Position numbers and translations under genes: made by a program. Source: Kiritimatiellia bacterium (GTDB lineage: Bacteria > Verrucomicrobiota > Kiritimatiellia > RFP12 > UBA1067). From it: a stretch of 64,000 nucleotides of DNA. Below, piece by piece: positions 7,414-28,812 of the stretch; position 1 is the stretch's first letter; each line of letters opens with the position of its first letter. The stretch spans positions 627-64,626 of the forward strand of contig JBAYXX010000008.1 in NCBI GenBank assembly GCA_041673345.1, in the 5' to 3' direction. The notes beneath the pieces were generated by a model. That model was not told the origin of the DNA, searched no databases, and was given only the letters and a program-made list of their open reading frames with translations.

Positions 7414-7554
7414 GTGGTTATTCCTTAAAACGGCTGTGCAAAAAATGAAGTTATACTATATCAAACAATACACTAAAACACTACGCCTTAATTTTTGGTA
7501 AATTATCTTAAAAATTATAGCGCACTGAGCCTGTATCTCCGGCGATAATCGGCT

Positions 7555-8784
7555 TTAAGTATTGCTTTTATCTTTGACTACAGGTTTGAAGCCCACCGCC
7601 ATCAACACAGCCAGAACCAGCGAGATACCGATTGCAATCAGAAATGGTGTAGTCCAATTATGTGCGCCGGTTTCAGCGACAATGTTTTTACTGAGAATTT
7701 TATCAAAAATAAAGTTCGACAAAAAGGTACCAAGACTGAACATTATCAGCCCAATAAAACCCTGCGCCTGGCTACGCAGCTCCTTGGGTGCGGCCGCGTC
7801 AACATACATCTGGCTGCCAACAATCAACATGCCGAATATCAACCCATGAATCAAGATGCCTGCATAATCACCTACATTTACACCGGTACGGGTACCAATG
7901 TAGAACATGACATAACGGAAGACCAGCGCCATCAGGCCGATAACCATAGCCCACTTGTAGCCAGCTTTTCTCAAAATAAAGGGAATCATGAGCATAAACG
8001 CCAGCTCCAGCACCTGCCCGAGATTCATAACCGCAGTCAGGTACTCATAGCCACGCTCCTGCAGGTACATGCTATTATAAACGTTATACCATTGGAACGG
8101 CACCATGGCCAACAGGATTAACAGCGAGAAAACCAGGAAGTCCGGACGTTTAAGCAACACCAGCGCACGCAGACCCAAAGCATCAACCAGCGACATCTTC
8201 TGCCCCTTGGCTGGCGGTTTGGTAGGCGGCAGGAAGAAAGCCAGCAAGCCAGCGATCACAGCCGCGATTGCACCCCCGACAAAGATATAAGATGTACTGT
8301 CAAACTTTGCAATATTAAAAACCTTAGTTCCCACAACACTAAAGACCGCCGCCGCAACCCAGCCCAACGAGCCAAAGACGCGAATTTGCGGAAAGGCCTC
8401 GGTTGTGCTGTTCGCCATTGCGATTGTGGCGGTCAGAGACCAGGTCGGCATATAAAACACCATGACCAACAGCAGCGTCACAAATAAAGCCAGCGGTGAT
8501 TTAACGGTATAGGCATAGGCCAGCAGACCGGCCGAGACAAAATTACAAATTGCCAGCACCTTCTCGCTATTCATAAAGCGGTCAGCGAACATACCGACAA
8601 TAGGAGATGCCAAGGCACCAAATCCCATAATCATACCGCATAACAGAGGCAGATGACTACCCTCTGGTGCCATTTTTCTAATATACGGAAACATTGGTAT
8701 GAACCATACCGGAAGAATCATAAACTGCAAGAACATCATTGCGCTCAGTTTAACGCGTGTACTCATCGACATTTTATCCGACAT
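7555..8784 (-). CDS. MFS transporter, nucleoside:H+ symporter (NupG/XapB-like) family
   Basis: About 12 hydrophobic segments; GMFADRF, FPQIRVFGSLGW, ELRSQAQG motifs. Confidence 0.85.
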   Translation of the reverse strand: MSDKMSMSTRVKLSAMMFLQFMILPVWFIPMFPYIRKMAPEGSHLPLLCGMIMGFGALASPIVGMFADRFMNSEKVLAICNFVSAGLLAYAYTVKSPLALFVTLLLVMVFYMPTWSLTATIAMANSTTEAFPQIRVFGSLGWVAAAVFSVVGTKVFNIAKFDSTSYIFVGGAIAAVIAGLLAFFLPPTKPPAKGQKMSLVDALGLRALVLLKRPDFLVFSLLILLAMVPFQWYNVYNSMYLQERGYEYLTAVMNLGQVLELAFMLMIPFILRKAGYKWAMVIGLMALVFRYVMFYIGTRTGVNVGDYAGILIHGLIFGMLIVGSQMYVDAAAPKELRSQAQGFIGLIMFSLGTFLSNFIFDKILSKNIVAETGAHNWTTPFLIAIGISLVLAVLMAVGFKPVVKDKSNT

Positions 8785-9916: not shown

Positions 9917-11191
9917 CTAGCCTTCTACCTTCAACAGAAAGTAGTTTTTCTTGCCGCTGCGCAGCACAATCAGGCGATTCTCGACCAGGTCATCTGTTGT
10001 GACCACCCGCGCCAGGCCAGAGGCCTTGACGTTATTGATACTCAAACCTCCCTGCTCCACCAGGCGGCGGGCTTCGCCCTTGCTGCTGACCATTCTGGCG
10101 GCGGCGATCACCTCAAAGGCTGGTTTTCCGACCACCTCAGCCTGGCTGAGGGTGCCCGAGGAGACATCAGCGAATATTTTCGCGAGATCATCCGCGCTCA
10201 TGCCTTCCATTGAGCCGCCAAACAGCACCTCAGTCGCCTGCAGTGCCGTGGTCAGCCCTCGCTCCCCATGCACACAGCGGGTCAACTCCGCTGCCAGCAC
10301 CTTCTGGGCCTCGCGCTTCTCAGGCTCGTTCGCCACACACTCGGCCAGCTCCGCGATACGCTCCTCTGAAAGAAATGTGAAAATTCTCAAATAGCGCACC
10401 GCATCGGCATCCAGCGAGCGCAAAAAGAACTGATAAAACTCGTAGTATGAGGTCTTATTCGCATCCAGATAGATCGCATTGCCCTCACTTTTGCCGAATT
10501 TTTTACCATTACTGTCGCAGACCAGCGGAAAGGTCATTCCGAAGACCTCCTGGCCGCTCAGTTTGCGCACCAGATCGGTTCCAGCCGTGATATTGCCCCA
10601 CTGATCTGAACCGCCGATCTGCACCCGGCAGCCGTAATTTTTGTACAGATGATAGAAATCATAGCCCTGAAGAATCTGATAGCAGAATTCTGTGAAGCTC
10701 ATGCCATCATCAGATTCGAGGCGCTTCTTGACACTGTCCTTGCCCAGCATCTGCGACATGCGGAAGTGACGTCCCACATCGCGCAGAATATCAATAAAAG
10801 AAAGATCCTTAAACCACTCATAGTTGTTAACCATGATGGCCGCATTCTCTGAACTGGGATTGAAATCCAGAAAGCGCGAGAGATTTTCCTTAATTCCCTC
10901 TAGATTTTGCTCCACCTGCTCCTTGGTGAGCAGATTACGTTCCTGCGATTTACCGGAGGGATCACCGATCAAACCAGTGGCGCCACCAACCAGGGCAATC
11001 ACCTTGTGGCCCTGACGCTGCAGATGCGCCAGCGCCATGATCGTCACGAAGTTGCCGGCTTGCAAGCTCTCGGCAGTAGGGTCGAAGCCGGCATAAACAG
11101 TTGTAGGACTATCAAATAACTGCTCCAGATCAGCGCTGGTCATATCCTCAAACAGATGGCGCGACTTGAATATACTTAAAACATTTTTCAT
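9917..11191 (-). CDS. tyrS: tyrosine--tRNA ligase
   Basis: YAGFDPTA, GGATGLIGDPSG, QIGGSDQWGNI, KFGKS motif, C-terminal S4 domain. Confidence 0.97.
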   Translation of the reverse strand: MKNVLSIFKSRHLFEDMTSADLEQLFDSPTTVYAGFDPTAESLQAGNFVTIMALAHLQRQGHKVIALVGGATGLIGDPSGKSQERNLLTKEQVEQNLEGIKENLSRFLDFNPSSENAAIMVNNYEWFKDLSFIDILRDVGRHFRMSQMLGKDSVKKRLESDDGMSFTEFCYQILQGYDFYHLYKNYGCRVQIGGSDQWGNITAGTDLVRKLSGQEVFGMTFPLVCDSNGKKFGKSEGNAIYLDANKTSYYEFYQFFLRSLDADAVRYLRIFTFLSEERIAELAECVANEPEKREAQKVLAAELTRCVHGERGLTTALQATEVLFGGSMEGMSADDLAKIFADVSSGTLSQAEVVGKPAFEVIAAARMVSSKGEARRLVEQGGLSINNVKASGLARVVTTDDLVENRLIVLRSGKKNYFLLKVEG

Positions 11192-11247
11192 TTTTTACTC
11201 TTTCTAGTCGCTTATGGATCGCGAATAACAATTCGATGCTAAAGCCC

Positions 11248-11280
11248 AAAAAAGGGCGTCTGTTGCCAGACGCCCTTTTT
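11248..11280 (-). terminator. Rho-independent terminator after rpsA (symmetrical, potentially bidirectional)
   Basis: AAAAAAGGGCGTCTG-TTGC-CAGACGCCCTTTTT, 10 nt past the rpsA stop. Confidence 0.9.
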
Positions 11281-11290
11281 CAGCGATAAA

Positions 11291-13036
11291 TTACTGATCG
11301 CCAGGATGCCACTCTTCGCTCTCACTCTGCGCGAAAGCGTCATCAAATGCAGCTGCCAGACCAACCAGATTTTCACCAGGCTTCAGATCAGAAACATTCA
11401 AGTCGCGGGTCAACTCTTCAATCTCTGTCTCATCCATGTTGACTGCCTTGATACTCAGACCAATACGGCGTTCCTCACTATCGATCTTCACGATACGCGC
11501 CTCAACCTCGTCATTGACTTTGAGCGCGTCTTTGACCTTCTCCACATGCTGATCAGAGATTTGCGAAATATGAACCAGACCGTCCACGCCGTCCTCCAGC
11601 TCAACAAACGCGCCGAAGGAAGCGATCTTGGAGACCGTGCCCTTAACAACCTGTCCGATTGCAAAGCGGGTGGTAATGGTGTTCCATGGGTCATCGCTCG
11701 CCTGCTTCAAACCAAGGCTGATACGCTGATCAGCAGGATTGACCTCAAGTACCACAGCATCAACCTGCTGGCCCTTCTGCAGGACCTCGCTCGGGTGATT
11801 GATCTTACGTGTCCAAGACATATCGGAGACGTGGATCATGCCGTCAATACCCTCTTCCAGCTCAACAAACGCGCCGTAAGTAGTGAAGTTCCGCACCTTG
11901 CCGCTGATGCGGCAGCCAACCGGGTAACGCTCCTGAACCGTATCCCAGGGGTTTTCCTCTGTCTGACGGATGCCGAGAGCGATCTTCTGGTTTTCCGCAT
12001 CAAGACTCAGAACAACCACATCCACCTCATCACCCACAGCCAGGACATCAGATGCGCGGGCAACACGTTTAGTCCAGGAAAACTCAGAAACGTGCACTAG
12101 GCCTTCAATGCCGGGCTGAATTTCAACAAACGCGCCATACGGCACCAGGTTGACGACCTTACCGCGCAGACGGCTGCCAATCGGGAAACTGCCACCAATA
12201 TCATCCCACGGATTCGGTGTGGCCTGCTTCAGCCCCAGGGAAACGCGCTCGCGCTCCATGTCAACATCCAAGATTATCACTTCCACTTCCTGGCCGACCT
12301 TCAGCATTTCACCTGGATGCTTGATGCGACCCCAGCTCATGTCAGTGATATGCAGCAGTCCATCCAAACCATCCAGATCAACAAAGGCGCCAAAGTCAGT
12401 GATATTTTTGACGCGTCCGACACGCTGTTGCCCCTTTTCAATGGAAGCCAGCAGATCATGCTTGCGGTCAGCCATGCGCTCTTCAATCAGTTCGCGACGA
12501 GAGACAATAATGTTCCTGCGCTCGTTGCTGATCTTAATGACTTTAAATTCAAAACTTTGACCAATCAAAGCGTCAACATCCGCAACAGGCGCAACATCAA
12601 TCTGTGATCCAGGCAGGAAGGAATCGATGCCATCCACATCCACAATCAGGCCGCCGCGCACTTTGCTGCAGATAATGCCGGTGACAACGCCGCCCTCGGT
12701 GTATTTTTCAAGAACTGAATCCCATCGTAACTTCTCGTCAGCGCGTCCTTTGCTGAGAACCACCATGCCGCTGTCGCTCTCAAGCTCTACCAGCAGCACA
12801 TCGATCACATCACCAACATGCACCGTCGAAACATCTTTAAACTCGTTGGCATTAACTGAGCCTTCCGATTTGTAGCCAATGTCAACCAATACTTCGTTGC
12901 CTTTGATACCGCTGACCTTACCCTTAATAATTGAATTTGCAGTGAATTGATGCATCTGCTCACTCAGTGCTGCCTCCATTGCCTCATACATTAAACCGGT
13001 TTTGGGTGTTGCAGCCTGGGGTTTGCGAATTGCCAT
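11291..13036 (-). CDS. rpsA: 30S ribosomal protein S1
   Basis: Six S1 repeats (VKNITDFGAFVDL, GLLHITDMSW, YGAFVE...); start moved to ATG 13036 (MAIRKPQ). Confidence 0.96.
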   Translation of the reverse strand: MAIRKPQAATPKTGLMYEAMEAALSEQMHQFTANSIIKGKVSGIKGNEVLVDIGYKSEGSVNANEFKDVSTVHVGDVIDVLLVELESDSGMVVLSKGRADEKLRWDSVLEKYTEGGVVTGIICSKVRGGLIVDVDGIDSFLPGSQIDVAPVADVDALIGQSFEFKVIKISNERRNIIVSRRELIEERMADRKHDLLASIEKGQQRVGRVKNITDFGAFVDLDGLDGLLHITDMSWGRIKHPGEMLKVGQEVEVIILDVDMERERVSLGLKQATPNPWDDIGGSFPIGSRLRGKVVNLVPYGAFVEIQPGIEGLVHVSEFSWTKRVARASDVLAVGDEVDVVVLSLDAENQKIALGIRQTEENPWDTVQERYPVGCRISGKVRNFTTYGAFVELEEGIDGMIHVSDMSWTRKINHPSEVLQKGQQVDAVVLEVNPADQRISLGLKQASDDPWNTITTRFAIGQVVKGTVSKIASFGAFVELEDGVDGLVHISQISDQHVEKVKDALKVNDEVEARIVKIDSEERRIGLSIKAVNMDETEIEELTRDLNVSDLKPGENLVGLAAAFDDAFAQSESEEWHPGDQ

Positions 13037-13283
13037 ATGAATCTGTTTCCAATCCAATTTAAGAGCACTGTGGTTTTTAAATTTACAAAACGCCGCTCTT
13101 GAATCAGATGTTTTTAGTGTTAATAAACAAGGAGCCTCCTGTTTGTCCCAGTCACCCGACCGGGAGAGCCTCGTTTTTCTATACCCTTTTTTAGGGCATA
13201 AAACTAAATATAATATCAAACCCCGCAGTTGATTACCACTTTAAACTTTAAAAAATTATCGTTTAGAAATTGTATAAAAACAG

Positions 13284-13336
13284 TGTTGACAGGTGCTTAT
13301 GATCTGTTGACAGATGATTATGATCTGTGCTATATT
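13284..13336 (+). promoter_or_regulatory. promoter with tandem 21-bp duplication containing TTGACA
   Basis: TGTTGACAGGTGCTTATGATC / TGTTGACAGATGATTATGATC; the second TTGACA is 18 nt from TATATT, which is preceded by TG-n. Confidence 0.6.
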
Positions 13337-13476
13337 TTTTTTAATTCGCAGGGATGGTGTCCACGCTCGGTTTGCTGATTAAAGATACAGGGCTGTAACT
13401 TCGCAAACCATCCTTCAAAGAAGTCACCGAGCAACGCGAGGTTGCCCTTGCCGTTTTGGAAAAGATTAGCTGTTCC

Positions 13477-13571
13477 AACGATGTTGCCGATAAACTACGT
13501 GCGTTGGCGGTCTCCGCCATTCTCGATCTACAGAAGGTGTTACAGTGAAACGACTTGTTATAATGATGAGT
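13477..13571 (+). repeat. 95-bp direct repeat, left copy
   Basis: 94/95 identical to 19044-19138; encodes the last 23 codons of the 16644..19115 gene and the first 9 codons of the 13545 gene. Confidence 0.95.
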
Positions 13572-14795
13572 ATAGTGGCATGGGGAGTCTTGCAGGCGGC
13601 AGAACTGTATCAATGCCCGGAAGCACCGGTTATTGATGGTATCGAAGATCCGTGCTGGAGTCAGGCGGAAGCTTTCCCTCTCGTTGATTGGAAAGACGGA
13701 AGCCCGTTGCATATGAAGACCGTTGCCCGGATTATGCGAGATAACCAGAGTCTCTATGTTTTCATGCACTGCCGTGAGGTCAATCTGGTGGAGGCGCGGG
13801 ACCAGGAAAAATTTAATCGGCACGATGCGCCGATTTGGAATAGTAACTGTGTAGAGTTCTTTTTTGACGTTCGCAATGACGGACGTGCCTTTTACCAATT
13901 CGTTGTTGATATCCACAACGATGCTGCAGACCTGCTGCACGATGATCCCGAGAGCCCGTCAAATGCGATTGACTGGAACGGTTTCTGGCGACATGCGGTT
14001 GGAACGTATGCTGACGGATGGACGGTAGAAATCGCAATTCCCTGGAGTACGCTAAAAATGCTTACAGGTCAACCTGTGCGTCTGGGCATGAATATTTCAC
14101 GTCCGCGACGCGTGGCTCCCTTTGAGCGTGGCTCCCTTGCACCGGGGGAAGGCGGTCTGTGCGATTTTTCCCAATTTCTGGTTTTCGATAACTTCAGTCT
14201 GGAAGAGTCGGAATTAACTGCTGATGTTTTGTCTAGTAAAGTTTTTCTTGGGTCAAACCGGATGACACTGCGCATGCGTAACCACACCGCACATAACTTG
14301 GTCGGACAACTTGAATTGACAGGTACTGCTTCGGATCATCGTGAAGTGCTGCGTATGGCGGTTCCGCTTGAAATGAAAGCCAACGAAGAACGCGACGTAT
14401 CGGTCGATTACCGGATTGACGAATCCGGACAGGTTATGCTGACGGCTGGTTTTATCCATGACAAGGAAAGATGCTTCTTAGCTCAAGCTGATTACATCTT
14501 TCGACAGCCACTTGAGTTTAACGACCCGCATCTGCTGGTTTTTGCCGGAGAAGATCATCCTGTCTACGTTCGTATTTTTTCGGATGCGCCGTCTTGGACA
14601 GTTGATGTAGAAATTCTCGACCATTTGGGTGAACGGTGCGCCAAAACGGATACGCTATCGCCGCCAGCCAATGCCTTTTTGGTGCTGCCGACCCGTCAGC
14701 TTGCGCCGGGTGCTTACACGGTACGGATCTTATTAAAGCACGGTAATAACCTGAGTAAGAACACAATGCCGCTCAAAGTGATCCCGCGACCGTGA
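13545..14795 (+). CDS. secreted CBM9/DOMON-like carbohydrate-binding protein with C-terminal Ig-like domains (copy A)
   Basis: Signal peptide; APVIDG, D..LYV..C, D.P.W...CVEFFFD, WTVEIAIPW are typical of the CBM9-like fold; paralog of 21633..22883. Confidence 0.75.
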   Translation: MKRLVIMMSIVAWGVLQAAELYQCPEAPVIDGIEDPCWSQAEAFPLVDWKDGSPLHMKTVARIMRDNQSLYVFMHCREVNLVEARDQEKFNRHDAPIWNSNCVEFFFDVRNDGRAFYQFVVDIHNDAADLLHDDPESPSNAIDWNGFWRHAVGTYADGWTVEIAIPWSTLKMLTGQPVRLGMNISRPRRVAPFERGSLAPGEGGLCDFSQFLVFDNFSLEESELTADVLSSKVFLGSNRMTLRMRNHTAHNLVGQLELTGTASDHREVLRMAVPLEMKANEERDVSVDYRIDESGQVMLTAGFIHDKERCFLAQADYIFRQPLEFNDPHLLVFAGEDHPVYVRIFSDAPSWTVDVEILDHLGERCAKTDTLSPPANAFLVLPTRQLAPGAYTVRILLKHGNNLSKNTMPLKVIPRP

Positions 14796-14844
14796 GGAAC
14801 ACTATTTTTTGACTGAGAATACGCAACAACTAAGGAGAAGAAAA

Positions 14845-16452
14845 ATGACCGTACGATTTTTTGCAACTCTTTGCACGGGGCTGCTTCTGACAGGTGTGGT
14901 AAACGGCGGCGTTTATGTCGCTCCCAACGGTCCCGGTCCAGCTCCCTTCGATAGCTGGGCGACAGCGGCATCGGATATTCAGACGGCCGTGACTGCTGCG
15001 TCGTCGGGTGATACGATTCTGATTTCCAATGGGGTTTATACGTTGACATCAACCATTTCCGTTGCCAAGAATTTGACCTTACGAGGAGTGCCAGCGAGTA
15101 CTCAACCGACGATTGACGGAAATCAACTTGTCCGCTGTTTAAAAGCGGAACAAGGTACAACTGTTTTTCTGGAAAACCTAAAAATCATCAAAGGTGTGGA
15201 TGCAGGCCTGAAAGGAGCGGGTGCGAGTCTAGTTAATGGAGGCGTCCGTGATTGTGTTTTTTCGAACAATGTCGCCACGTCGCACGGAGGCGGGCTCTAT
15301 ATCACCGGTTCCGGCACTGTAGAACGAACCACATTCATGTATAACGTTTCAGAATACGGCGGTGGCGGTCTCGCCTCGTACAGAAGTCCATTCCTGAGAA
15401 TCGACGATTGCCTTTTCCAGAAGAACTATGCGAAAGCGGCCGGCGGCGGCGGCTTGTCGCTGGATGGTGTGGCCGGTTTGGCGCTTGTCAACAGCCGGGT
15501 TCTTGATAATGTCACGACGAATCTGGGAAGCGGTGGCGGTATTTATGCCATCAGTACTCCCGTTTCGGAAACACCTAACTTAATCTCGAACTGCGTGATT
15601 GCCGGCAATATAGCGGGGTCTACAAACGAAACAGGCAATGGTTTTCATGGTGGCGGCATCCACATGCGTAGTGTAGGGAATTCCTATACGATTGCGAATT
15701 GCATTATTACGAACAATGCAGCCGCCAAACATGGGGGTGGAATCTCGCTTTGCGCGCCCTCTATGGTCAGGAATTGTTTGATTGCCTATAACCGGCAGAC
15801 ACCGGGAGTTGGCAATGCATACTATGGCGGCGGCGGTGTTTATATTGAACAAAATGGGCAATTGATCAACTGCCGGGTCAAGGGAAACAGCACGATTTAC
15901 GGAGGAGGGGGGGTCTTTAGCCCCAGCAGCAGCCTGATCCGCAATTGCCTGATTACCGACAACGTCGCGATGAATCCGGCAAACGGTGGCGGCATCCGCA
16001 ACCGTTTTGCCGGTCTCACAGTCGAGAACTGTACGATCACACGGAATGTATCAGGCGGTTATGGTGGCGGCCTGGATATTCGCGAAAAGGCCACGTTTTC
16101 AAACTGCATCATTTTCAGCAACGAATGTTCCTCTTCGGACAGTTTTCAAAACTACTACATAGCAGGAGCAGGCGCGAAGGAAACGGCTTTTTTGAACTGC
16201 TGTTTTACACCGGAACTTCACTCAGATTACGCTAACTATTCGTTCAGTAACATTCATGTCGATCCGCGCTTTGAGGGGGAAGACTATATTCTGCGCCCAT
16301 CCTCACCCTGCATCAACACCGGTACGAATCTGCTCTGGATGACGGGCGCGCTTGACTTGGCCAACTGCCCACGGATTGATAGAGGCAGTGGAAAAGTTGA
16401 CATGGGCTGCTTCGAGTATGTTCCGATAGGGACGGTGATACAGATTCAATAG
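14845..16452 (+). CDS. secreted right-handed parallel beta-helix (pectin-lyase-fold) repeat protein with choice-of-anchor-Q-like tail
   Basis: Repeated N-A...GGG / NC-I--N units; YILRPSSPCINTG...D--G--R---G-VDMGCFEY; ends GTVIQIQ; AAGGAG SD before ATG 14845. Confidence 0.8.
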   Translation: MTVRFFATLCTGLLLTGVVNGGVYVAPNGPGPAPFDSWATAASDIQTAVTAASSGDTILISNGVYTLTSTISVAKNLTLRGVPASTQPTIDGNQLVRCLKAEQGTTVFLENLKIIKGVDAGLKGAGASLVNGGVRDCVFSNNVATSHGGGLYITGSGTVERTTFMYNVSEYGGGGLASYRSPFLRIDDCLFQKNYAKAAGGGGLSLDGVAGLALVNSRVLDNVTTNLGSGGGIYAISTPVSETPNLISNCVIAGNIAGSTNETGNGFHGGGIHMRSVGNSYTIANCIITNNAAAKHGGGISLCAPSMVRNCLIAYNRQTPGVGNAYYGGGGVYIEQNGQLINCRVKGNSTIYGGGGVFSPSSSLIRNCLITDNVAMNPANGGGIRNRFAGLTVENCTITRNVSGGYGGGLDIREKATFSNCIIFSNECSSSDSFQNYYIAGAGAKETAFLNCCFTPELHSDYANYSFSNIHVDPRFEGEDYILRPSSPCINTGTNLLWMTGALDLANCPRIDRGSGKVDMGCFEYVPIGTVIQIQ

Positions 16453-16643
16453 CGTTGCAGTCTTCGTTTCATGCTCCGCGGGGAGCGGACGTCGAATACA
16501 GGGTTACTGGGTGTTTCGATACTGACCCCGATTAATGAAAATGTTAAACTGGCGACTTATTCGTGGACTTATTTGTAGTTGTTGATCGGCGGTTCTGTTG
16601 TTTTTCAAAACAGGGAGAGGCCTCATGTATGGAAGGAAAATCA

Positions 16644-19115
16644 ATGCGCACTTTCTTAGTATGGAATAAAAAAGAAGCGGTAAACGGAATAAAAACATTG
16701 TTTTGTATCAGCGTAGCGGTTTTTTCCCTATCGCTGATGGCATCGGAAAAAATTGTTCTCCACGATGAGTTTTACCCCGGGCTGCAGCGAAGCGTATGGA
16801 TTGTGACTGATAATCCCTCCGAACCGTGGCAACTTGAGGAGAAAATCCGTTTCTCGCATGAAAAGATGGGTTTTCGCTTTATATCCGGCAAAGCTCTGAT
16901 GCAGCGCGTGGATGTGGTAAATGCCGCCACGGGTGAGACAGTCTGGCAGACGAAAGCCTTTGGACAAACGCTCCAGACGCCAGTGCTTCCCGAAGCCGAT
17001 TACATCATTCGCGGCTCCGGTAAACCGGGCGCAGAAAAAGTGGTTATAGCCGTTGATTTTTCCCGGGACGGGTATCTGCTCCCCAGTTGGAAAATATCTC
17101 ATGCGGAGGTCAGCCAACTTCCAGAAGGTGGAATCGAACTTAAACCGTTGGCCCCTGATCAACATGCAGCTATTGACGGACGCATTTTAAAATTGTCTCG
17201 AGGACGCTATTACGAAGTTGAACTGGCGTTTGAAAGCGATCAGGTCAATGAGCTGCTGATGCGCTGTACGCAGCGGTTGGACGGCAAACGCCATTCCGAG
17301 ACGTCGACATTGACGACCGGAGTCGGTGAGCAGCAAGTCTGGCGAGTTGGCGTTGCGGCCATTTCCGTCGGAATGGGGGTCTCTATACAATCTTCCGGAG
17401 CGTTTCGTTTGCGCGCATTCACGGTCAAAGAGGTGCCGCCTCCTGCGCGTCGGAAGCAGGTGGGCGACAAGATTTTTACTTTTGAACCGCGCAATTCGGA
17501 ACCTGATCCACCCAACCCGGATATTTCTGGTCCTGTCGCCTTCAGGCGGCCACCCCGGCTGATTTATGAGGACAGTGTACCGCAACCGTTAGAGCTGACT
17601 GATGCGCTCGACACCTTCGCAACTCCGGGAACGTATGCTGTCTGGCATTTTGCTGTGCATAATCCGGATGCGCCGCGTCATTTGAAAGTATTGAACATCA
17701 GCGATCTGGAGGCGCAAGACGGCCATCGGATCCCCGCTGCCGCGCTGACTATCTCAACCGTCAAGTTCTGGGATTTTCCCCGTGGAACTTATACGTACTA
17801 CAACATTCCCGAGTTGATCTATCCGCAGGAGGAAGTGGAACTTGATGCAAACCGCAACCGTTTTTTCTGGATACAAACTCGATTGTCCAATACGTGCCCG
17901 GCCGGTGTCTATACCGGTATTGCCAGTGTTCAATGTGGCGAAACAGAACTTGACTTGTCTGTTCGGCTCCGTGTGCTGCCGTTTCGGCTGATGACGCCGA
18001 CGAACATGGTGTGGTCAGTTTACGGTGGCGCAAGACTTCCGCCGCAAAAATGGTACCCGGAAAAGCTTGTCGTCCGTTATCTGCGCGATATAATCGATTA
18101 CGGTGTTACATCGCTGGTCACGTCGCTGGGTACCGAAGACAGCGTGCGTAAATTCCAGTCGGAACGCCGACAGGCTGAGATGAAGGGACCAGTGATCGTT
18201 CGTAATTTTGCCGAGCGTTATGCTGCGAGGCGTTGCGGTATTACCGACAATTTTCCCGAGCGCTGGTTTGATCATCCAGAGATACGCCAGGCGTTTGTCG
18301 AATACTTGAAAGACTTCGACGACTGGTTCAAAAAATACGGCGGAGAAGGCTATGACGAATGGATGTACATGGGCGATGATGAGCCGCAGAACCACAGTAT
18401 GGAATCTGGTATTTGGCAGATTCGGCTGGCCCGCGAAGCAGGCATCCGCACAGCCTCCTGCGTTTACGCGCCACGTTACGTGACACAGATGGCTCCATGG
18501 CTGAACATCTCCTGCAACAGTTTTATTTCCCAGAGTGAAACGATGTTTGCCGATCTGATGAAGGTTGCCGCTGGCAAGCCCTTAGAATATTGGTATCTCG
18601 GCGGCGGCTGTTACTCAGGGCAGGAAGGCGGGGTGATGCCTGATCGCCTTGAAAGTGGTTTGATGAGTTTTAAACTCGGCGTAACAGGACACATCGCTTA
18701 CGGCTACCAGTCGTTTCGGCGGGGGCGGGGAGAAACTGAAGTCTCTCCCTATGATAACTTTACTCGCGGAAAATATAACGCCATGACTTATCCCGCCGAA
18801 GAGCCGACTGAAGCCAAGGTGACGGTTTTTTCGCTGGAATGGGAGGGAATCCGTGAGGGGATCGCTGACTATAAGTACTTATATACGTTGCGTGAGATGG
18901 GTAAGCAGGCACGCGGCCAGGGTCTGATCCGCGAGGCGGATGCGGCTCAAAAGAAAATTGAGGAAATTCTTGCCAGTGTTCCCTGGCGCGGTGACCAGCG
19001 CCATTATGTATCAGATAGCATTACAGAGAAGCAGTATTTCAATAACGATGTTGCCGATAAACTACGTGCGTTGGCGGTCTCCGCCATTCTCGATCTACAA
19101 AAGGTGTTACAGTGA
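16644..19115 (+). CDS. secreted GH123-like / DUF4091 protein (copy A)
   Basis: TPGTYAVWHF N-terminal GH123-like domain, YMGDDEP acidic pair, C-terminal SLEWEGIREGIADYKY; start chosen at ATG 16644 (SD GGAAGG), ATG 16629 is possible. Confidence 0.72.
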   Translation: MRTFLVWNKKEAVNGIKTLFCISVAVFSLSLMASEKIVLHDEFYPGLQRSVWIVTDNPSEPWQLEEKIRFSHEKMGFRFISGKALMQRVDVVNAATGETVWQTKAFGQTLQTPVLPEADYIIRGSGKPGAEKVVIAVDFSRDGYLLPSWKISHAEVSQLPEGGIELKPLAPDQHAAIDGRILKLSRGRYYEVELAFESDQVNELLMRCTQRLDGKRHSETSTLTTGVGEQQVWRVGVAAISVGMGVSIQSSGAFRLRAFTVKEVPPPARRKQVGDKIFTFEPRNSEPDPPNPDISGPVAFRRPPRLIYEDSVPQPLELTDALDTFATPGTYAVWHFAVHNPDAPRHLKVLNISDLEAQDGHRIPAAALTISTVKFWDFPRGTYTYYNIPELIYPQEEVELDANRNRFFWIQTRLSNTCPAGVYTGIASVQCGETELDLSVRLRVLPFRLMTPTNMVWSVYGGARLPPQKWYPEKLVVRYLRDIIDYGVTSLVTSLGTEDSVRKFQSERRQAEMKGPVIVRNFAERYAARRCGITDNFPERWFDHPEIRQAFVEYLKDFDDWFKKYGGEGYDEWMYMGDDEPQNHSMESGIWQIRLAREAGIRTASCVYAPRYVTQMAPWLNISCNSFISQSETMFADLMKVAAGKPLEYWYLGGGCYSGQEGGVMPDRLESGLMSFKLGVTGHIAYGYQSFRRGRGETEVSPYDNFTRGKYNAMTYPAEEPTEAKVTVFSLEWEGIREGIADYKYLYTLREMGKQARGQGLIREADAAQKKIEEILASVPWRGDQRHYVSDSITEKQYFNNDVADKLRALAVSAILDLQKVLQ

Positions 19116-19138
19116 AACGACTTGTTATAATGATGAGT
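19044..19138 (+). repeat. 95-bp direct repeat, right copy
   Basis: Matches 13477-13571 with one synonymous CAG/CAA difference. Confidence 0.95.
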
Positions 19139-19188
19139 GGAGGCTTAGCAAAAGCCGCTAAATACATTTAATCGTGAAGGAAATCAAT

Positions 19189-21633
19189 ATGTACCGAACA
19201 TGGGAAATCACGTTAGCTTCTTGGCTGAAGCGTGGGATGATGCTTGTAACGGCAGGTTTTTGTTTATCTGCATTGGCGTCGGAATCGATTGTTTTGCAGG
19301 ATGCCTTCCGTCCTTCGTTGCAACGGAGTTGGTGGTGGGTTGTTGATTCGCCGACAAAACCATGGCAGCGAGAAATGCGGCTTCAATTTGAGCAAGAGCA
19401 GATGCGCTTTCGTTTCATTTCGGGGCATACGTTGCTACAGAGCCTGGAGATTGTTGATGTGCTCACCGAGAAGACAGTCTGGGAAACGCAGTCGTTTGAA
19501 AGGGCTTTATTGACACCGGTTTTGCCGGAAGCCGAATATGTGGTGCGTTGTCGTGGCCGTATGGGAGGTGAGAAGGTTTCTGTAGCCGTTAATTCGTATC
19601 GAGACGGTTATCTCTTACCAACCTGGAAACCGAGTGACGTTGACATTGCCCATACCGTTGGCGGTGGAATTACGCTGACACCACAGACTCCCGGAAAAGC
19701 TGGTTCCATTTGCGGACATATTTTTAAGCTTGTGCCCGGTCGTTTTTATACGATTGATCTCAAATTTGAGTCCAACCAAGTGAATGAATTTTTCATGCGT
19801 TGCACGCAGCGCAAGGATGGGGCACGACGCGCTAAAACGGCGACACTGACAACTGGAGTTGGTGATGAGCTGAGTTGGAGCGTTGATGTTGCGGCCGTTG
19901 CCGCTTCGATCTCCCTTACGCTGGAGGTTTCAGATGCGTGCCATTTGCATGAATTGATCCTGAGAGAGGTTCCACCGCCGTCCGCTCGTAAAGAGGTGGC
20001 TGGCAAGACATTCACTTTCGAGCCTCGCAATTCAGAGCCAGAACCATTGAATCCCCGTCTCAGCGAACCCATTGCTTTTAGTCGTTCACCTCGGCAAACG
20101 TTCGAGTCGAGTATACCGCAGGATTTCGAACGAATTACAGATCTCAATACTTTTGTGACGCCGGGAGAATATGCCGTCTGGCATTTTACCGTTCACAATC
20201 CAAATGAATCGCGACGTTTGGAGCGATTAACAATTAGTGCGTTGGAAAGCGAGGATGGGCGCAAAATTCCAGCGTCAGACGTGAACATTTCTCACGTTCA
20301 ATTTTGGGATTATCCGAGTGGCCCCTATACCTACTACAACATCCCTGAGTTGATTGAGCCGCAGGAGTCTGCTGATCTCGGTGCAGGTGAAAATCGTATT
20401 TTCTGGCTTCAGTCTCGAATTTCTGAAACGACTCCGTCCGGTGTTTACACAGGAACAGCGCATGTCATGTGCGGGAAGACTGAACTTGAACTTCCTGTAA
20501 GATTGCGTGTTTTACCTTTTACATTACAGACACCGACAAATATGGTTTGGGCCGTCTATTCACGTCAGCACGTCCGTCCGCAAAGCCAATATCCGAAAAA
20601 ACTTGCCGTTCGCTACTATCGCGATATGGTCGATTACGGCGTTACTGCTTTGCACCGGACGCTAGGCTCGGAAGCGAGTGTGCGAATTTTTCAATCGGTG
20701 CGCCGCCAAGCTGAAATGAAAGGCCCGGTGATCGTTTACGGCATACGGGCTGAACATGTTGCGATGGAAAGGTGCGGCGTAACAAACGCTGTTCGTTGGT
20801 TCAACAATCCGGAAGTCCGTCAGACTTTTGTTGACTTTGTGAAGGAATTTGATGGCTGGTTTAAGAAGTATGGTGGCGAAGGCTATGAAGATTGGTATTA
20901 CATGGGCAATGATGAGCCTCATATCCGCAGTATGGAGGAGAGTGGTTGGCAGAACAGGCTGGCCCGCGAGGCGGGAGTCCGCACGGCCTCCTGCGTCTAC
21001 GCGCCGCGCTATGTTCGTGAACTCTCTCCCTGGCTTGATCTCTCCTGCAACAGCTTCATTTCGCAGAGTCCTGTGATGCGCGATGAATTGCTGGAAGTTG
21101 CTGAAGGTAAGCCCCTCGAATACTGGTATCTTGGCGGTGGCGTCTATGGGGGCCAAGAGGGCGGTCTGATGCCTGACCGGCTAGATAGCGGCTTTATGAG
21201 TTTCAAGCTTGGCGTGACTGGGCATCTTTCTTATACCTATCAGGCGTTTTCCAGCCGATCCAGTCCGGATCCCTATGACAATTTCACTGCCGGAAAATCC
21301 TATGGGATGACCTATCCCGCTCGGAATCCGACGGAAGAGAAAGTCAGTGTTTTCTCGCTGGAATGGGAAGGCATTCGTGAGGGAATCGTCGACTATAAGT
21401 ATCTTTATACGTTGCAGAAATTGGAGGCGCAAGCCCGTGCAAAGGGCTTTATCGAAGAAGCCAATGCTGCGCGAACAACACGGGAAGCGGTTCTTGCTCA
21501 CGTTCCCTGGCGTGATGACCGCAACTATATTTCGGATGGTATCACTCAGGTCCAAATGTTTAACAATGAAATTGCCGACAAGCTTCGTGCGCAAACGGCA
21601 CAGGCTATTCTTACTTTACTGGAGGTTTTATAA
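19189..21633 (+). CDS. secreted GH123-like / DUF4091 protein (copy B)
   Basis: Full-length paralog of copy A; YMGNDEP, SLEWEGIREGIVDYKY; stop overlaps the next start (TAATG). Confidence 0.72.
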   Translation: MYRTWEITLASWLKRGMMLVTAGFCLSALASESIVLQDAFRPSLQRSWWWVVDSPTKPWQREMRLQFEQEQMRFRFISGHTLLQSLEIVDVLTEKTVWETQSFERALLTPVLPEAEYVVRCRGRMGGEKVSVAVNSYRDGYLLPTWKPSDVDIAHTVGGGITLTPQTPGKAGSICGHIFKLVPGRFYTIDLKFESNQVNEFFMRCTQRKDGARRAKTATLTTGVGDELSWSVDVAAVAASISLTLEVSDACHLHELILREVPPPSARKEVAGKTFTFEPRNSEPEPLNPRLSEPIAFSRSPRQTFESSIPQDFERITDLNTFVTPGEYAVWHFTVHNPNESRRLERLTISALESEDGRKIPASDVNISHVQFWDYPSGPYTYYNIPELIEPQESADLGAGENRIFWLQSRISETTPSGVYTGTAHVMCGKTELELPVRLRVLPFTLQTPTNMVWAVYSRQHVRPQSQYPKKLAVRYYRDMVDYGVTALHRTLGSEASVRIFQSVRRQAEMKGPVIVYGIRAEHVAMERCGVTNAVRWFNNPEVRQTFVDFVKEFDGWFKKYGGEGYEDWYYMGNDEPHIRSMEESGWQNRLAREAGVRTASCVYAPRYVRELSPWLDLSCNSFISQSPVMRDELLEVAEGKPLEYWYLGGGVYGGQEGGLMPDRLDSGFMSFKLGVTGHLSYTYQAFSSRSSPDPYDNFTAGKSYGMTYPARNPTEEKVSVFSLEWEGIREGIVDYKYLYTLQKLEAQARAKGFIEEANAARTTREAVLAHVPWRDDRNYISDGITQVQMFNNEIADKLRAQTAQAILTLLEVL

Positions 21634-22883
21634 TGAAATCGATCCTACTGACTGCTCTTCTTTTTCTCATCTGTCCATTGATGGCGGCTGAGTTATATAA
21701 GTGTTCAAGTCCGCCGTTGATCGATGGGGCAGAGGATACAATTTGGCAAGAAGCGAGCGTATTTCCGTTGTTCAATATCAAGGCGGACCAGCCACTCGTT
21801 ATGGAAACGGTTGCTCGCATCATGTACGATGATCAAAATCTCTACGCCTTTGTTCATTGTCGCGAGGTCAATCTGGTTGAAGCCCGAGATCAGATGAAAT
21901 ACACCCGACACGACGCACCCGTTTGGGAAAATGGCTGCGTGGAGTTTTTTCTTGATGTTCGTAACGACGGACGCGCTTATTATCAGTTTGTCGTCGACGT
22001 TCACGGCAGTGCTGCGGACTTGCTGCGATACGACCCCGATGGTCCCCGAAAAGGGATAGAATGGAACGGTTTTTGGCGTCGTGCAGTCGGCACAAGCGCT
22101 GATGGCTGGACAGTTGAAGTTGCCATTCCTTGGCGTAGCCTGAACATGACACCTAGCGACCAGCGCCTGGGGTTGAATATTTCGCGCGTACGGCGCATTT
22201 CGCCCTTTGAGCGTGGCACGTTGGCTGCGGGAACGTCTTCAATTAGCGATTTGGCCCGTTTCCTGATTTTTGAGAACATCCGTCTTGAGGCACCTGAGGT
22301 CTCCGCCGAGATTCAGCCCGGCGCAGTTTTCCTCGGGAAAAACAGGATGCGGCTGCGGGTCCAGAATCATACTGAAGCGCCAGTTTCTGGTCAGTTGCAA
22401 CTCGTCGGCACAGCCGTGGCGGTTGCCGAAGTGATTATGCGGGAAAATCTGCCGCTGGAGCTGAAGGCTGGTGAGACGCGCGATGTGGCGGTTGATTACC
22501 GGAGCGACACACTGGGCCGAGTACAGGTGACCGCTAACTTAGTTCAGAATCAATCGGTACAGTTCCTCGATGTCGCAGATTATGTCTTCCGCCAGCCGAT
22601 CGAACTGAATGATCTTCATCCGCTTGCATTCGCCGGCAAAGATCATCCGGTTTACGTTCGGATATTCACTGATGCTTCCGAGTGGACGGTGGATGTCACG
22701 ATTAGTGACCGTCAAGGCAGCGTCTGCGCGGTGACCGAAAACCTCAGACCTTCTGCGAACGCTTTTCTGATGCTTCCAACGGCTCGTCTGGAGCCAGGTG
22801 ATTATAGCGTCAGGATTACGCTCAGACATGGTGGGGCGATCAGTGAAAGCGATGTGCCACTCACTGTGATTCGCCAGCCTTAG
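21633..22883 (+). CDS. secreted CBM9/DOMON-like protein (copy B)
   Basis: Same length (416 aa) and colinear with 13545..14795. Confidence 0.75.
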   Translation: MKSILLTALLFLICPLMAAELYKCSSPPLIDGAEDTIWQEASVFPLFNIKADQPLVMETVARIMYDDQNLYAFVHCREVNLVEARDQMKYTRHDAPVWENGCVEFFLDVRNDGRAYYQFVVDVHGSAADLLRYDPDGPRKGIEWNGFWRRAVGTSADGWTVEVAIPWRSLNMTPSDQRLGLNISRVRRISPFERGTLAAGTSSISDLARFLIFENIRLEAPEVSAEIQPGAVFLGKNRMRLRVQNHTEAPVSGQLQLVGTAVAVAEVIMRENLPLELKAGETRDVAVDYRSDTLGRVQVTANLVQNQSVQFLDVADYVFRQPIELNDLHPLAFAGKDHPVYVRIFTDASEWTVDVTISDRQGSVCAVTENLRPSANAFLMLPTARLEPGDYSVRITLRHGGAISESDVPLTVIRQP

Positions 22884-22992
22884 ATCGTTCGGTGCCGATG
22901 TTACTTTCGCTTGGAGGAGTGATAGCGATATACTTTACAAGTTTGATACGGGAAAATTCAGCTGACAGTTAATACATCAACAGGAGCATGTT

Positions 22993-23412
22993 ATGAAAAG
23001 AAAAGAGACGTTCATTATTTTTATCGGATTAGCCTTGGCAGTCTCGAGTCGTGGAGAGGTTTACGTTGCCCCGAATGGACCCGGTCCCGCTCCTTTTGCA
23101 AGCTGGGCGACAGCTGCGCCGGATATTCAGTCGGCTGTTACAGCGGCCGCCCCGGATGACACGATCTTGATTTCGAATGGTGTCTACGGGGGTGGCGGCA
23201 TCCGTATTCGTTACGATTTGGGGTTAAGGATTGAGAACTGCACGATTACTGGTAATTCTGCCGATAAGCCGGGCGGCGGTATTAATTTTTATGCTCCTAC
23301 CACCTTAGTTAACACCATCATCTATGGTAATACCTGCTCTTACTCGTCGACTTACAACAATTATTACCAACGTTACGATGGGACGAATGCGGTTTTCGAG
23401 AGCTCATTATAA
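22993..23412 (+). pseudogene. internally deleted and 3'-truncated beta-helix protein (copy B)
   Basis: N-terminus VYVAPNGPGPAPF-SWATAA-DIQ matches 14845..16452, then joins in frame to GGGIR...ENCTIT; about 310 codons and the C-terminal tail are missing. Confidence 0.8.
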
Positions 23413-23487
23413 CCGATGGAGGAGGAACCCCGTGAACGGGTTACATGGAATGTCAACGAAGGACAATCAATAAAAAGGAGATGAAAT

Positions 23488-24411
23488 ATGATAAATCGGC
23501 GTGAATTTCTTGAAAAGACAGCGGCACTTGCCGGAGTAAGCACATTGCCGGCATGGGGTCCGTTGGGCTGCGCAACGCAAGCCCGCTACCCAGCTTACGG
23601 GAATACTCTGCAGGACCGTCTCTGGATGTGGGGACATGACTCGGGGGTTTATGACGGAGCAAAGGGAAAATATAACATCCCGCTGAGCCCCCCGATCAGT
23701 ATGGCCGACGGCATCAAATACATGGGGATACCGAACGTCTGTGTGATTCGTCACAGAGTCGGGAACGACGAATACAACAAACAGTTCAAGGACGTGAAGC
23801 GGATTGCATGGACCCTCTCCATGGGCTCCAATCAGTCTTATCAGAGCTTGAAAAACTATGTCTTCGGTTTACGGGATACGATGCCCAACCTAACCGGCTA
23901 TTATTTAGATGACTTTTTCCGTTTCGGCGACAAGCCTGGGTTTGACCAGAATTCCGAGACTGTCCCCGCGCCAGCCTCACTTTCCTTGGATGAGCTAAAG
24001 CAGCTCCATGACGAAACGAAGGCCTACAAGCGCCGCCTTGATCTGGCAATCGTTTTGTACACCCATATGCTGTGCCCGGCGATCAAGCCTTACATGAAAT
24101 ACACCGATACTGTCTCGCTCTGGATCTGGAGCGGTAGCGACATCCAGAAAATTGAGGATAATTTCAAAAAATATCGTTCTCTGGTTCCTGACAAACCGAC
24201 CCTTCTCGGCATCTACATGTGGGACTTTGGGGGCAGAAAAGAGCTGAGTACAGAGTTTATGGGCAAACAACTTGACTATGCCTACAAGCTGTACAAGCAG
24301 GGACAAATCGAGGGGATGATTTTCCACTGCACACCGCTTTGCAACAAAAATCTTGCGGCTGTCGAATATGCGAAAAAATGGATTGCCGAGCATGGCGGGG
24401 AAAGCCGGTAG
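23488..24411 (+). CDS. Tat-exported hypothetical protein, possible (beta/alpha)8 fold
   Basis: NRREFLE Tat motif, possible lipoprotein Cys; GYYLDDFF and LGIYMWDFG motifs; GGAG SD. Confidence 0.65.
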   Translation: MINRREFLEKTAALAGVSTLPAWGPLGCATQARYPAYGNTLQDRLWMWGHDSGVYDGAKGKYNIPLSPPISMADGIKYMGIPNVCVIRHRVGNDEYNKQFKDVKRIAWTLSMGSNQSYQSLKNYVFGLRDTMPNLTGYYLDDFFRFGDKPGFDQNSETVPAPASLSLDELKQLHDETKAYKRRLDLAIVLYTHMLCPAIKPYMKYTDTVSLWIWSGSDIQKIEDNFKKYRSLVPDKPTLLGIYMWDFGGRKELSTEFMGKQLDYAYKLYKQGQIEGMIFHCTPLCNKNLAAVEYAKKWIAEHGGESR

Positions 24412-24425
24412 AAAAAATAACCGCT

Positions 24426-27227: not shown

Positions 27228-27291
27228 CAAAATGAAATTTCACCATACAAATCCACAAAGCAAAAATGTAGAAAAAGGAGAAACCGACACT

Positions 27292-28812
27292 ATGAAAACT
27301 ATGACCTTTATCTTTGTCCTGTTTGCGGTTTCTTTTTTCTTTCCTATCAAGGCTGGCCATGCGGCCCAGCTTTATGCGGGAGTCGCCAAGGCCGATATAA
27401 CGGATTATACAGCGGGTCCCGTCAATGATCCGCTGTATGTCAAAGCCTTGGTACTGAAGAACAGTTCTAATACTGTTGTGCTGATTACGGTGGATGCGGT
27501 GGCCATCGGGAAACTCGGCAGGATCAGCAACGATTTTCTTCCAAACATACGCGCGCAACTGCAGAAGGACCTGAACATCCCGCCTTCGCATGTCCTGGTC
27601 AATGCCAGCCACTGCCATGGCGTGGTGCGTACAGACACCGCGCGGCTTGCAGTGCAGACCGTTGAGGCTGCCTGTAGCAATTGGGTGCCTGTGACGGTCG
27701 GCACTGGTATCGGCCGCGAGACCCGGATTATGGAAAATCGCCGCCTTAAGCTGAAGAACGGAGAGGAGGCGGATGTCCGCCGCGCTTACGCGCTGCCGCC
27801 GGACGAGGAGGTTGTTGCCAGCGGACCGGTTGATCCGGATATCGGCGTACTCAGGATCGACAAGAGAGACGGAAAACCGCTGGCAGTGGTTTACAACTTC
27901 GCATGCCATCCCATCATGGGGGTTCCGAGCGGAGGAAACACAGCGGACTATCCTGGGTTCGCTTCCAGTGTGATCGAAGAGACGATCGGGGACGGCGCTG
28001 TCGCGCTGTTTTTACAGGGATGCGCAGGAGACATCAACCCGGCGTTGTACAAAACAGACCACCAACTTCATGATGCGGAATCGCTGGGCAACCTGCTGGG
28101 CCTCAGCACAATGCGGGCAATGAAAAAAATAGAGACTCAAGATGATGGCGAGCTTAAGGTTATCAATGAAGTGATCGCGTTGCCGCGAGGAACGGATCTG
28201 GCACAACGAATCTCACGGCTGGAGAAAGCGCAGGCACGGCTGGTTCAATCTCTGAAAGGTACCAGCCTTAACCTCAAGGCCTTTATTCCATTGTATGTGC
28301 AATACGCCCTGTCCAGTAATTATCCCTCCTATTACTCTTACCGGTATCTGCAAAATCAGTCGCCTGGCAGAGATGAACTGACTAAACTCGACACCAAAAA
28401 CCGGGCGAACATGGAGAGCTACATTCAGAACGTGCATGTCATGGAACGCCTGACGAGAATTCAAGAAAACCTTCGTTTACTAAAGATGCATCACGCGCAA
28501 AACATGGCTTCCGGTCAGAAAACAGTCGATGCCGAAATCGTTGTCCTGAAAATCGGAGACTTTGTATTGGCCACGTTTCCAGGAGAGCCCTCCGCTGAAA
28601 TAGGACTGAACATCAAGCGCCACTCGCCCTATCCGTTCACCTTCGTGTCCGGCTGCTGCAACGGTTACCTCTACTATGCTCCGACCGCGCAGCAGCGCAA
28701 CAATCCGGGTTTTGCTCAAGAGGATTGCGATTGCCTTTTGGCGCCGGAATGGCAGAAGGCGTATGAAGAAAAGGTCGCGCTTCTCTTGGAAAAATTGTCA
28801 CATAAAAACTAG
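27292..28812 (+). CDS. secreted neutral/alkaline ceramidase-like amidohydrolase
   Basis: DPLYVKALVL, VNASHCHG, NFACHP, QGCAGDINP, FPGEPSAEIG, GYLYYAPT; AAGGAG SD before ATG 27292. Confidence 0.75.
   Translation: MKTMTFIFVLFAVSFFFPIKAGHAAQLYAGVAKADITDYTAGPVNDPLYVKALVLKNSSNTVVLITVDAVAIGKLGRISNDFLPNIRAQLQKDLNIPPSHVLVNASHCHGVVRTDTARLAVQTVEAACSNWVPVTVGTGIGRETRIMENRRLKLKNGEEADVRRAYALPPDEEVVASGPVDPDIGVLRIDKRDGKPLAVVYNFACHPIMGVPSGGNTADYPGFASSVIEETIGDGAVALFLQGCAGDINPALYKTDHQLHDAESLGNLLGLSTMRAMKKIETQDDGELKVINEVIALPRGTDLAQRISRLEKAQARLVQSLKGTSLNLKAFIPLYVQYALSSNYPSYYSYRYLQNQSPGRDELTKLDTKNRANMESYIQNVHVMERLTRIQENLRLLKMHHAQNMASGQKTVDAEIVVLKIGDFVLATFPGEPSAEIGLNIKRHSPYPFTFVSGCCNGYLYYAPTAQQRNNPGFAQEDCDCLLAPEWQKAYEEKVALLLEKLSHKN

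Follow-up and report, generated by a model that had tools for sequence, protein, structure and literature searches.

A rotated three-gene module bounded by copies of its own gene junction in a Kiritimatiellia bacterium genome

The tandem-duplication/random-loss (TDRL) model of gene-order change has been described mainly for animal mitochondrial genomes. Proteins can be permuted by duplication in a comparable manner, as in the circularly permuted DNA methyltransferases, where a head-to-tail duplication is followed by trimming of both ends. Amplifiable units bounded by direct repeats are known from bacterial tandem gene amplification and from the 'gene accordions' of poxviruses. Here, we analyzed a 5,662-bp cassette of three genes at positions 13477–19138 of a 64,000-nucleotide stretch (the window) from a Kiritimatiellia bacterium. 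The window corresponds to positions 627–64626 of contig JBAYXX010000008.1 (C8) in a short-read metagenome-assembled genome (MAG, assembly GCA_041673345.1) of 4.63 Mb in 312 contigs, with a completeness of 88.8%. The cassette (module A) carries a CBM9-like gene (CBM9A), a beta-helix gene (bhA) and the gene of an ∼820-aa exported protein (GH123A) between two 95-bp direct repeats. It is a new example of a known event, the rotation of gene order via a head-to-tail duplicate, in an uncultured Kiritimatiellia-like genome of the Planctomycetes-Verrucomicrobia-Chlamydiae (PVC) group. We put at about 0.6 the probability that we are looking at a genuine and fixed rearrangement scar, left by a three-gene module that once stood head to tail, and it reads as an ordinary and clean one.

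As in the TDRL model, the genes of the cassette follow a cyclically rotated version of the ancestral order, and short non-functional remnants of lost gene copies lie at its edges. It differs from the model in that it is found in a bacterial chromosome, within what is probably a single operon; moreover, its remnants are only 72 and 27 nt long and jointly make up one gene junction, and no two-copy intermediate is known. The duplicate-and-trim logic of protein permutation applies equally to the cassette, but to the order of genes in an operon rather than to the order of domains in a protein. The geometry is also that of a gene accordion, with a direct-repeat-flanked unit that can expand by unequal exchange and collapse, but here the repeats are only 95 bp long and are not copies of an insertion sequence (IS) or of rRNA genes.

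In complex class 1 integrons, a partial duplication of the 3′ conserved segment flanks ISCR1 and the captured genes (PMC6218425). The present locus resembles them in that variable genes follow directly after an IS91-related end whose predicted promoter points outward, and in that a direct repeat brackets the acquired block. Unlike in the integrons, however, the duplicated segment belongs to the cassette and not to the platform, the window copy of the element has no transposase, there is no integron, the host belongs to the PVC group, and the cargo is exported and glycan-related.

The 95-bp repeat and the ancestral gene junction

A repeat search over window positions 11000–22000 revealed a direct repeat at 13477–13571 (copy 1) and 19044–19138 (copy 2), both on the + strand, with 94 of 95 bases identical. 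When the 95-mer was compared by BLAST with the whole 4.63-Mb assembly, no further copy was found beyond these two, both of which are on C8. A 95-nt match with one mismatch cannot have arisen by chance in 64 kb. The single difference, a G at 13533 and an A at 19100 (repeat position 57), is 1 nt 5′ of the core (AAGGTG) of the CBM9A Shine-Dalgarno (SD) sequence. It is synonymous in the GH123A frame (third base of a Gln codon, CAG/CAA) and separates blocks of 56 and 38 nt with perfect identity. The edges of the repeat are sharp, with no homology beyond either of them in the sequence around both copies. At the left edge, AACGATG is preceded by GCTGTTCC in copy 1 and by TATTTCAAT in copy 2; at the right edge, GATGAGT is followed by ATAGTGG in copy 1 and by GGAGGCT in copy 2. 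The DNA after copy 1 reads ATAGTGGC, and that after copy 2 reads GGAGGCTT.

Each copy spans the overlapping stop and start codons (GTGA) of GH123A and CBM9A. In copy 1, an orphan GH123A 3′ end runs into the intact CBM9A gene, of which the repeat covers the first 27 nt. This orphan stub (13477–13548, 72 nt) comprises the last 23 codons of GH123A plus the TGA, holds the CBM9A SD sequence and overlaps the GTG start of CBM9A at 13545. In copy 2, the true GH123A 3′ end, with its stop codon at 19113–19115, is joined to a CBM9A 5′ stub (19112–19138, 27 nt) made up of the first 9 CBM9A codons. Both stubs are ∼99–100% identical to the corresponding parts of the intact genes. The initial annotation had described the repeat with its one synonymous mismatch, its identity with the GTGA overlap and the orphan 23 codons ahead of CBM9A, and all of these were borne out. 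It had also placed a 19-codon stub of the CBM9 gene after GH123A. An open reading frame (ORF) of that length is indeed present (19112–19171, + strand, TAA at 19169–19171), but only 9 of its codons derive from CBM9A, and the other 10 are unrelated codons read through from the spacer. The stub ORF ends 17 nt before the ATG of the next gene, GH123B, and just ahead of the SD sequence of that gene (GAAGGA, 19176–19181).

When measured against the 5,567-bp repeating unit, the 5,662-bp cassette makes up 1.017 units: it begins 72 nt before the end of GH123A, the first gene in the ancestral order, and finishes 23 nt past the same point one turn later.

The CBM9-like protein has few relatives (17 among 5.8 billion proteins). 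The initial annotation had proposed comparing the gene order with that of related genomes. In all readable contigs (L031–L035 and L062/L063), the CBM9-like gene is immediately preceded by an ∼800-aa gene, with a stop/start overlap of 1 or 4 nt in each of them except L031, where there is a short gap. The order ∼800-aa gene, CBM9-like gene is shared by the second module of the window (module B, 19189–23412), whereas module A runs CBM9-like gene, beta-helix gene, ∼820-aa gene. Because relatives keep the ∼800-aa gene ahead of the CBM9-like gene, the order in module A is a derived, cyclically rotated one, and the 95-bp segment is the ancestral gene-gene junction. From this rotated order and the duplicated ancestral junction it follows that a head-to-tail state, either tandem or circular, must once have existed; we regard this past state as secure and logically required.

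For both the CBM9-like and the ∼800-aa proteins, maximum-likelihood trees place A outside a group formed by B and its orthologues. With high support, B clusters with its orthologues of other metagenomes, to which it is 87% (L062) and 72% (L031) identical, but A is only 59–61% identical to any member of the B clade. Between the two modules of the window, the ∼820- and ∼814-aa proteins are 59% identical and the CBM9-like proteins 57%. These data indicate that A is an old paralogue or xenologue and not a recent copy of B. The repeat copies, in contrast, differ by only ∼1%, so that the rearrangement is much younger than the A/B split. A recent foreign origin of A was rejected: the tetranucleotide distance and the GC content at third codon positions (GC3) of the cassette match those of module B and of the rpsA-tyrS region, and no plasmid match was found for the cassette.

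A predicted IS91-family-derived promoter upstream of the cassette

The left flank of the cassette carries a lone 3′ end of an IS91-family element, i.e., the transposase-downstream, oriIS-side end (13262–13450, + strand), which consists of a promoter, a leader and one 70-nt unit (13381–13450) ending in CTTG. The predicted promoter (13307–13336) points outward and is near consensus, with a −35 box TTGACA (13307–13312), an 18-nt spacer with TG and a −10 box TATATT (13331–13336), for a score of 11/12. As an extended −10 promoter, it is the only strong sigma-70-like match in 13000–24500. Its −35 region is tandemly duplicated over 21 nt (13284–13325, + strand; TGTTGACAGGTGCTTATGATC / TGTTGACAGATGATTATGATC), and this duplication is missing from the other copies of the element.

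The segment 13307–13450 is one member of a repeat family for which the assembly has ∼21 loci, many of them at contig ends, including C17:44228–45175, C60:24065–25050, C5:72157–72436 and C27:44950–45303. Among the same-genus genomes, the repeat was found at one locus in one genome. An alignment of the loci revealed a conserved promoter, a leader of ∼45 nt and 1–4 tandem 70-nt units, each ending in CTTG. At most loci the homology extends ∼750 nt further upstream, into the remains of an IS91-family Y2 (HUH) transposase gene that has lost its middle and retains the parts for the N-terminal zinc domain and the C-terminal end. The 950-nt copies are thus internally deleted; the long copies scored 26.4 bits with Zn_Tnp_IS91 (cut-off 26.3), and the C60 copy, which is fuller and runs off the contig end, scored 77 bits with Y2_Tnp. 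These matches identify the left-flank repeat as the transposase-downstream end of an IS91-family element. The window copy is incomplete. Its homology begins at ∼13262, just past the expected transposase stop codon, and the DNA upstream of this point is the rpsA leader shared with the nearest relative, the same-genus genome G004, whose synteny ends at ∼13260.

Downstream sequence is available at 19 loci, and at all 19 a same-orientation ORF (138–1957 aa) starts 8–130 nt past the last unit. Most of these ORFs have signal-peptide-like N-termini, and those with Pfam matches include an FGE-sulfatase domain protein, an FAD-dependent oxidoreductase and a GFO/IDH/MocA oxidoreductase. On the oriIS side of ISCR1, outward POUT promoters drive variable downstream genes (PMC6218425). 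There was no Rfam match in 12900–19400, and the 70-nt unit folded no better than shuffled sequences (z = −0.94).

Other repeats were observed around these loci. In G004, a repeat resembling repetitive extragenic palindromes (REP-like; C79 37560–37650, L049 ∼7550–7650) lies upstream of rpsA, at the place of the IS91-type promoter end, and matches dozens of loci in the present assembly (G000). An IS66-family transposase fragment at C17:43431–44048 (L055 1431–2048, minus strand) adjoins a 950-nt IS91-type derivative. The same BLAST search also returned other short repeat families, e.g., C17:42972–43105 (134 nt, 97–98% identity, at least 6 contigs).

Origin of the rotated arrangement

In the reading that we prefer, a fixed scar, the module of an ∼820-aa protein, a GTGA-coupled CBM9-like protein and a beta-helix protein would once have existed head to tail, as a tandem duplicate or as a circle, and would later have been trimmed or excerpted to 1.017 units. 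Thanks to the 95-bp self-overlap of the excerpt, neither gene at the break point was damaged. The excerpt now starts 26 nt behind the IS91-family-derived promoter and leader and ends 50 nt ahead of module B, its older paralogue. The three spacers concerned, L′ (13451–13476, 26 nt, between the IS-derived leader and copy 1), the 191-nt spacer ahead of GH123A (16453–16643) and R′ (19139–19188, 50 nt, upstream of GH123B), all on the + strand, are each unique in the assembly. L′ shows no similarity to the GH123A sequence upstream of 19044. The 191-nt spacer must hold the head-to-tail junction between the module end and the GH123A upstream region, and no promoter or terminator match was detected in it. 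Since the three novel junctions (13476/13477, within 16453–16643, and 19138/19139), which either of the routes considered below requires, are unique sequences in the assembly, they derive from reads and are neither an invention of the assembler nor an ambiguity of the graph.

Two routes to this product may be envisaged. In the first, in place, the G-C-H block would have been tandemly duplicated, and two deletions would then have removed the bulk of the first G as well as of the second C-H; this route uses common events only, and the genome-like composition of A is compatible with it. In the second, a longer-than-unit copy (a circle or a tandem array) would have been inserted into the 76-nt leader of module B, which accounts for the small self-overlap without further steps. 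When joined, the two outer spacers (26 + 50 = 76 nt) fall within the 8–130 nt leader-to-ATG range of the 19 other promoter-element loci, as would be compatible with insertion, and B-type orthologues elsewhere lack an A-type module upstream, although only L031 is informative on this point. When the joined spacers were aligned with the 191-nt spacer upstream of GH123A, the score was no better than with shuffled sequence. The present evidence could not separate the two routes, and a one-step replication error with multiple template switches would yield the same product.

Several observations weigh against a fixed scar or against one of these routes. The in-place route needs both deletion end points within 100 bp of the same junction, which is improbable if they are random. 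For the insertion route, the MAG (88.8% complete) holds no donor copy, and a Ku gene for end-joining was not found either. Scans of genomes and metagenomes with CBM9A found no close relative, and no other sampled genome carries module A; the same-genus genomes lack it, and their synteny stops at the rpsA leader. With no relative carrying module A, neither an intermediate nor an empty site was found. A search for gene fragments with the GH123A C-terminal and CBM9A N-terminal pieces gave no matches on other contigs, and the cluster member P0024 proved to be unrelated. A second NCBI/ENA deposit contains a 67,750-bp contig with the same CBM9A, bhA, GH123A, GH123B and bhB′ proteins, but identical proteins do not prove an identical gene order. 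In the Joint Genome Institute (JGI) sample 3300044572, exact-protein look-up returned only two short contigs (L029 and L036), neither of which reaches a junction.

The initial annotation had read the structure as the footprint of an integrated circle or of a collapsed tandem amplification. The head-to-tail past that both readings share is supported, but integration of a circle by homology (Campbell-type) was rejected as the origin, as it needs a 95-bp junction relic already present in the chromosome. Two independent small duplications as the source of the stubs were likewise rejected, because the stubs jointly rebuild the exact, conserved GTGA junction.

It is unlikely that the cassette is a live amplicon or a collapsed array, with the 5,567-bp unit present in at least two tandem copies or in excised circles and only the minimal path assembled. 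RecA recombination between the 95-bp repeats would then expand and contract the array as an 'accordion'. The minimal efficient processing segment of Escherichia coli is ∼25–50 bp, enough for RecA-dependent exchange. The direct repeats offer perfect blocks of 56 and 38 nt, and the assembly graph would have identical edges for a tandem array and for the path as assembled. In principle, the unit is therefore expected to be lost or duplicated now and then via the repeats, with the threshold being that of E. coli and not of this organism. The initial annotation had proposed an amplifiable unit for enzyme dosage; such low-frequency recombination, however, is generic to any 95-bp direct repeat and is no evidence of a dosage mechanism. 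The junction of a tandem array or circle would read TATTTCAAT, 95 bp, ATAGTGGC, and the excised allele would read GCTGTTCC, 95 bp, GGAGGCTT; but no contig in the bin carries an alternative junction, and the 95-mer occurs only twice, on C8. Furthermore, the one mismatch indicates that the copies are not homogenised by frequent exchange, and the contigs of the two deposits differ in extent by 3,049 bp, which is no multiple of 5,567. Nothing positive shows that amplification of the cassette is still ongoing. An assembly artefact, with the 95-bp repeat mis-threaded, a true chromosome reading L′-95-R′ and the cassette located elsewhere or in another strain, is judged quite improbable. In a short-read MAG of 312 contigs, an assembly whose largest k-mer was <95 could resolve the path through the repeat only by threading reads. 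Yet either alternative configuration still needs the same unique junction sequences, a 5.6-kb circle without a replication gene could not persist, flanks and cassette are alike in composition, and in the second deposit a single long contig likewise carries every one of these proteins at full length.

The cassette starts 26 nt past a lone IS91-family end, which raises the further alternative that an IS91/ISCR-like transposase copied a circular module past one turn and pasted it beside the oriIS-side end. An over-replicated circle naturally gives terminal redundancy, the genome has one intact, unrelated IS91-family transposase gene as well as partial copies of the element's own transposase, and in ISCR1 the oriIS side has outward promoters and captured genes that vary (PMC6218425). 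But in IS91-family transposition, replication starts at oriIS and crosses the transposase gene before reaching terIS (PMC6218425), a direction that leads away from the cassette. In addition, a transposase is missing from the window copy of the element, IS sequence is absent from the cassette, and neither the 26-nt spacer nor either cassette edge carries the terminal sequence of the element; the GTTC and CTTG tetramers nearby are too short to count. Owing to the direction of replication and to the lack of IS sequence in the cassette, rolling-circle capture was rejected as the principal explanation and is very improbable. We give equally little credence to the proposal that the cassette is a product or a substrate of a 'capture and amplify' process, by rolling circle or recombination, tied to the IS91-family promoter element, whereby modules made circular would be over-replicated and then set behind a portable promoter that faces outward.

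Genes of the two modules, predicted expression and significance

All genes of modules A and B are on the + strand. CBM9A (13545–14795) encodes 416 aa with a signal peptide-like N-terminus and a Pfam CBM9_1 match (E 1.2e-10), and bhA (14845–16452) encodes 535 aa with weak NosD, parallel beta-helix and Chlam_PMP matches. GH123A occupies 16644–19115. Three gene starts of the initial annotation were corrected to SD-supported positions, namely 14845 for bhA, which was confirmed by exact look-up, 16644 for GH123A and 19189 for GH123B. The resident module B keeps the ancestral order, with GH123B (19189–21633, ∼814 aa), a CBM9-like gene (CBM9B, 21633–22883) that overlaps GH123B at TAATG, and a shortened beta-helix relic (bhB′, 22993–23412). 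The unpermuted order first described for this module thus holds, except that its third gene, at 139 aa, is a relic. What is left of the protein are the 77 N-terminal residues, 60% identical to bhA, and a single repeat unit, the product of a large internal deletion of a beta-helix gene. The same short ORF is also present on the independent JGI contig L029.

The 'GH123-like' name given to the ∼820-aa proteins fared less well. GH123A has no Pfam, NCBIfam or PDB sequence match, and GH123B has no NCBIfam or PDB match and only a sub-threshold Pfam match (Glyco_hydro_123_N_2, 19.6 bits vs. a cut-off of 27). 'GH123' is used here as a mere label for what is a weak family assignment, no significant match having been obtained. 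Further downstream, the GC content is 0.58–0.60 at 24500–27500, over a 962-aa ORF (24339–27227), vs. ∼0.50 in the upstream modules; neither this ORF nor the 307-aa ORF that precedes it has a Pfam or NCBIfam match.

Since there is a single strong promoter, and no terminator-like site was found between the genes (13.2–23.4 kb), CBM9A-bhA-GH123A-GH123B-CBM9B-bhB′ is probably one operon transcribed from 13307–13336. We infer that CBM9A lost translational coupling to its partner and became the promoter-proximal, first gene of the operon; it retains its native SD sequence inside the orphan stub. The stub ORF, coupled to GH123A via GTGA, may hand ribosomes on to module B.

The cassette is an unusually clean natural record of gene-order rotation in an operon, in which a 95-bp self-overlap preserves the junction at both ends. 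It illustrates how two translationally coupled genes can come apart and both survive, the ribosome-binding site being retained in the orphan stub. The adjacent IS91-derived promoter family may matter more widely, as it is predicted to drive ∼20 exported-protein genes in this genome. If reads were to show copy-number variation, the cassette would represent a natural 'accordion' by which an uncultured lineage, from the gut or the environment, sets the dosage of secreted enzymes, and if capture and amplification were true, it would point to an ISCR-like gene-capture system for glycan-degradation modules in Kiritimatiellia.

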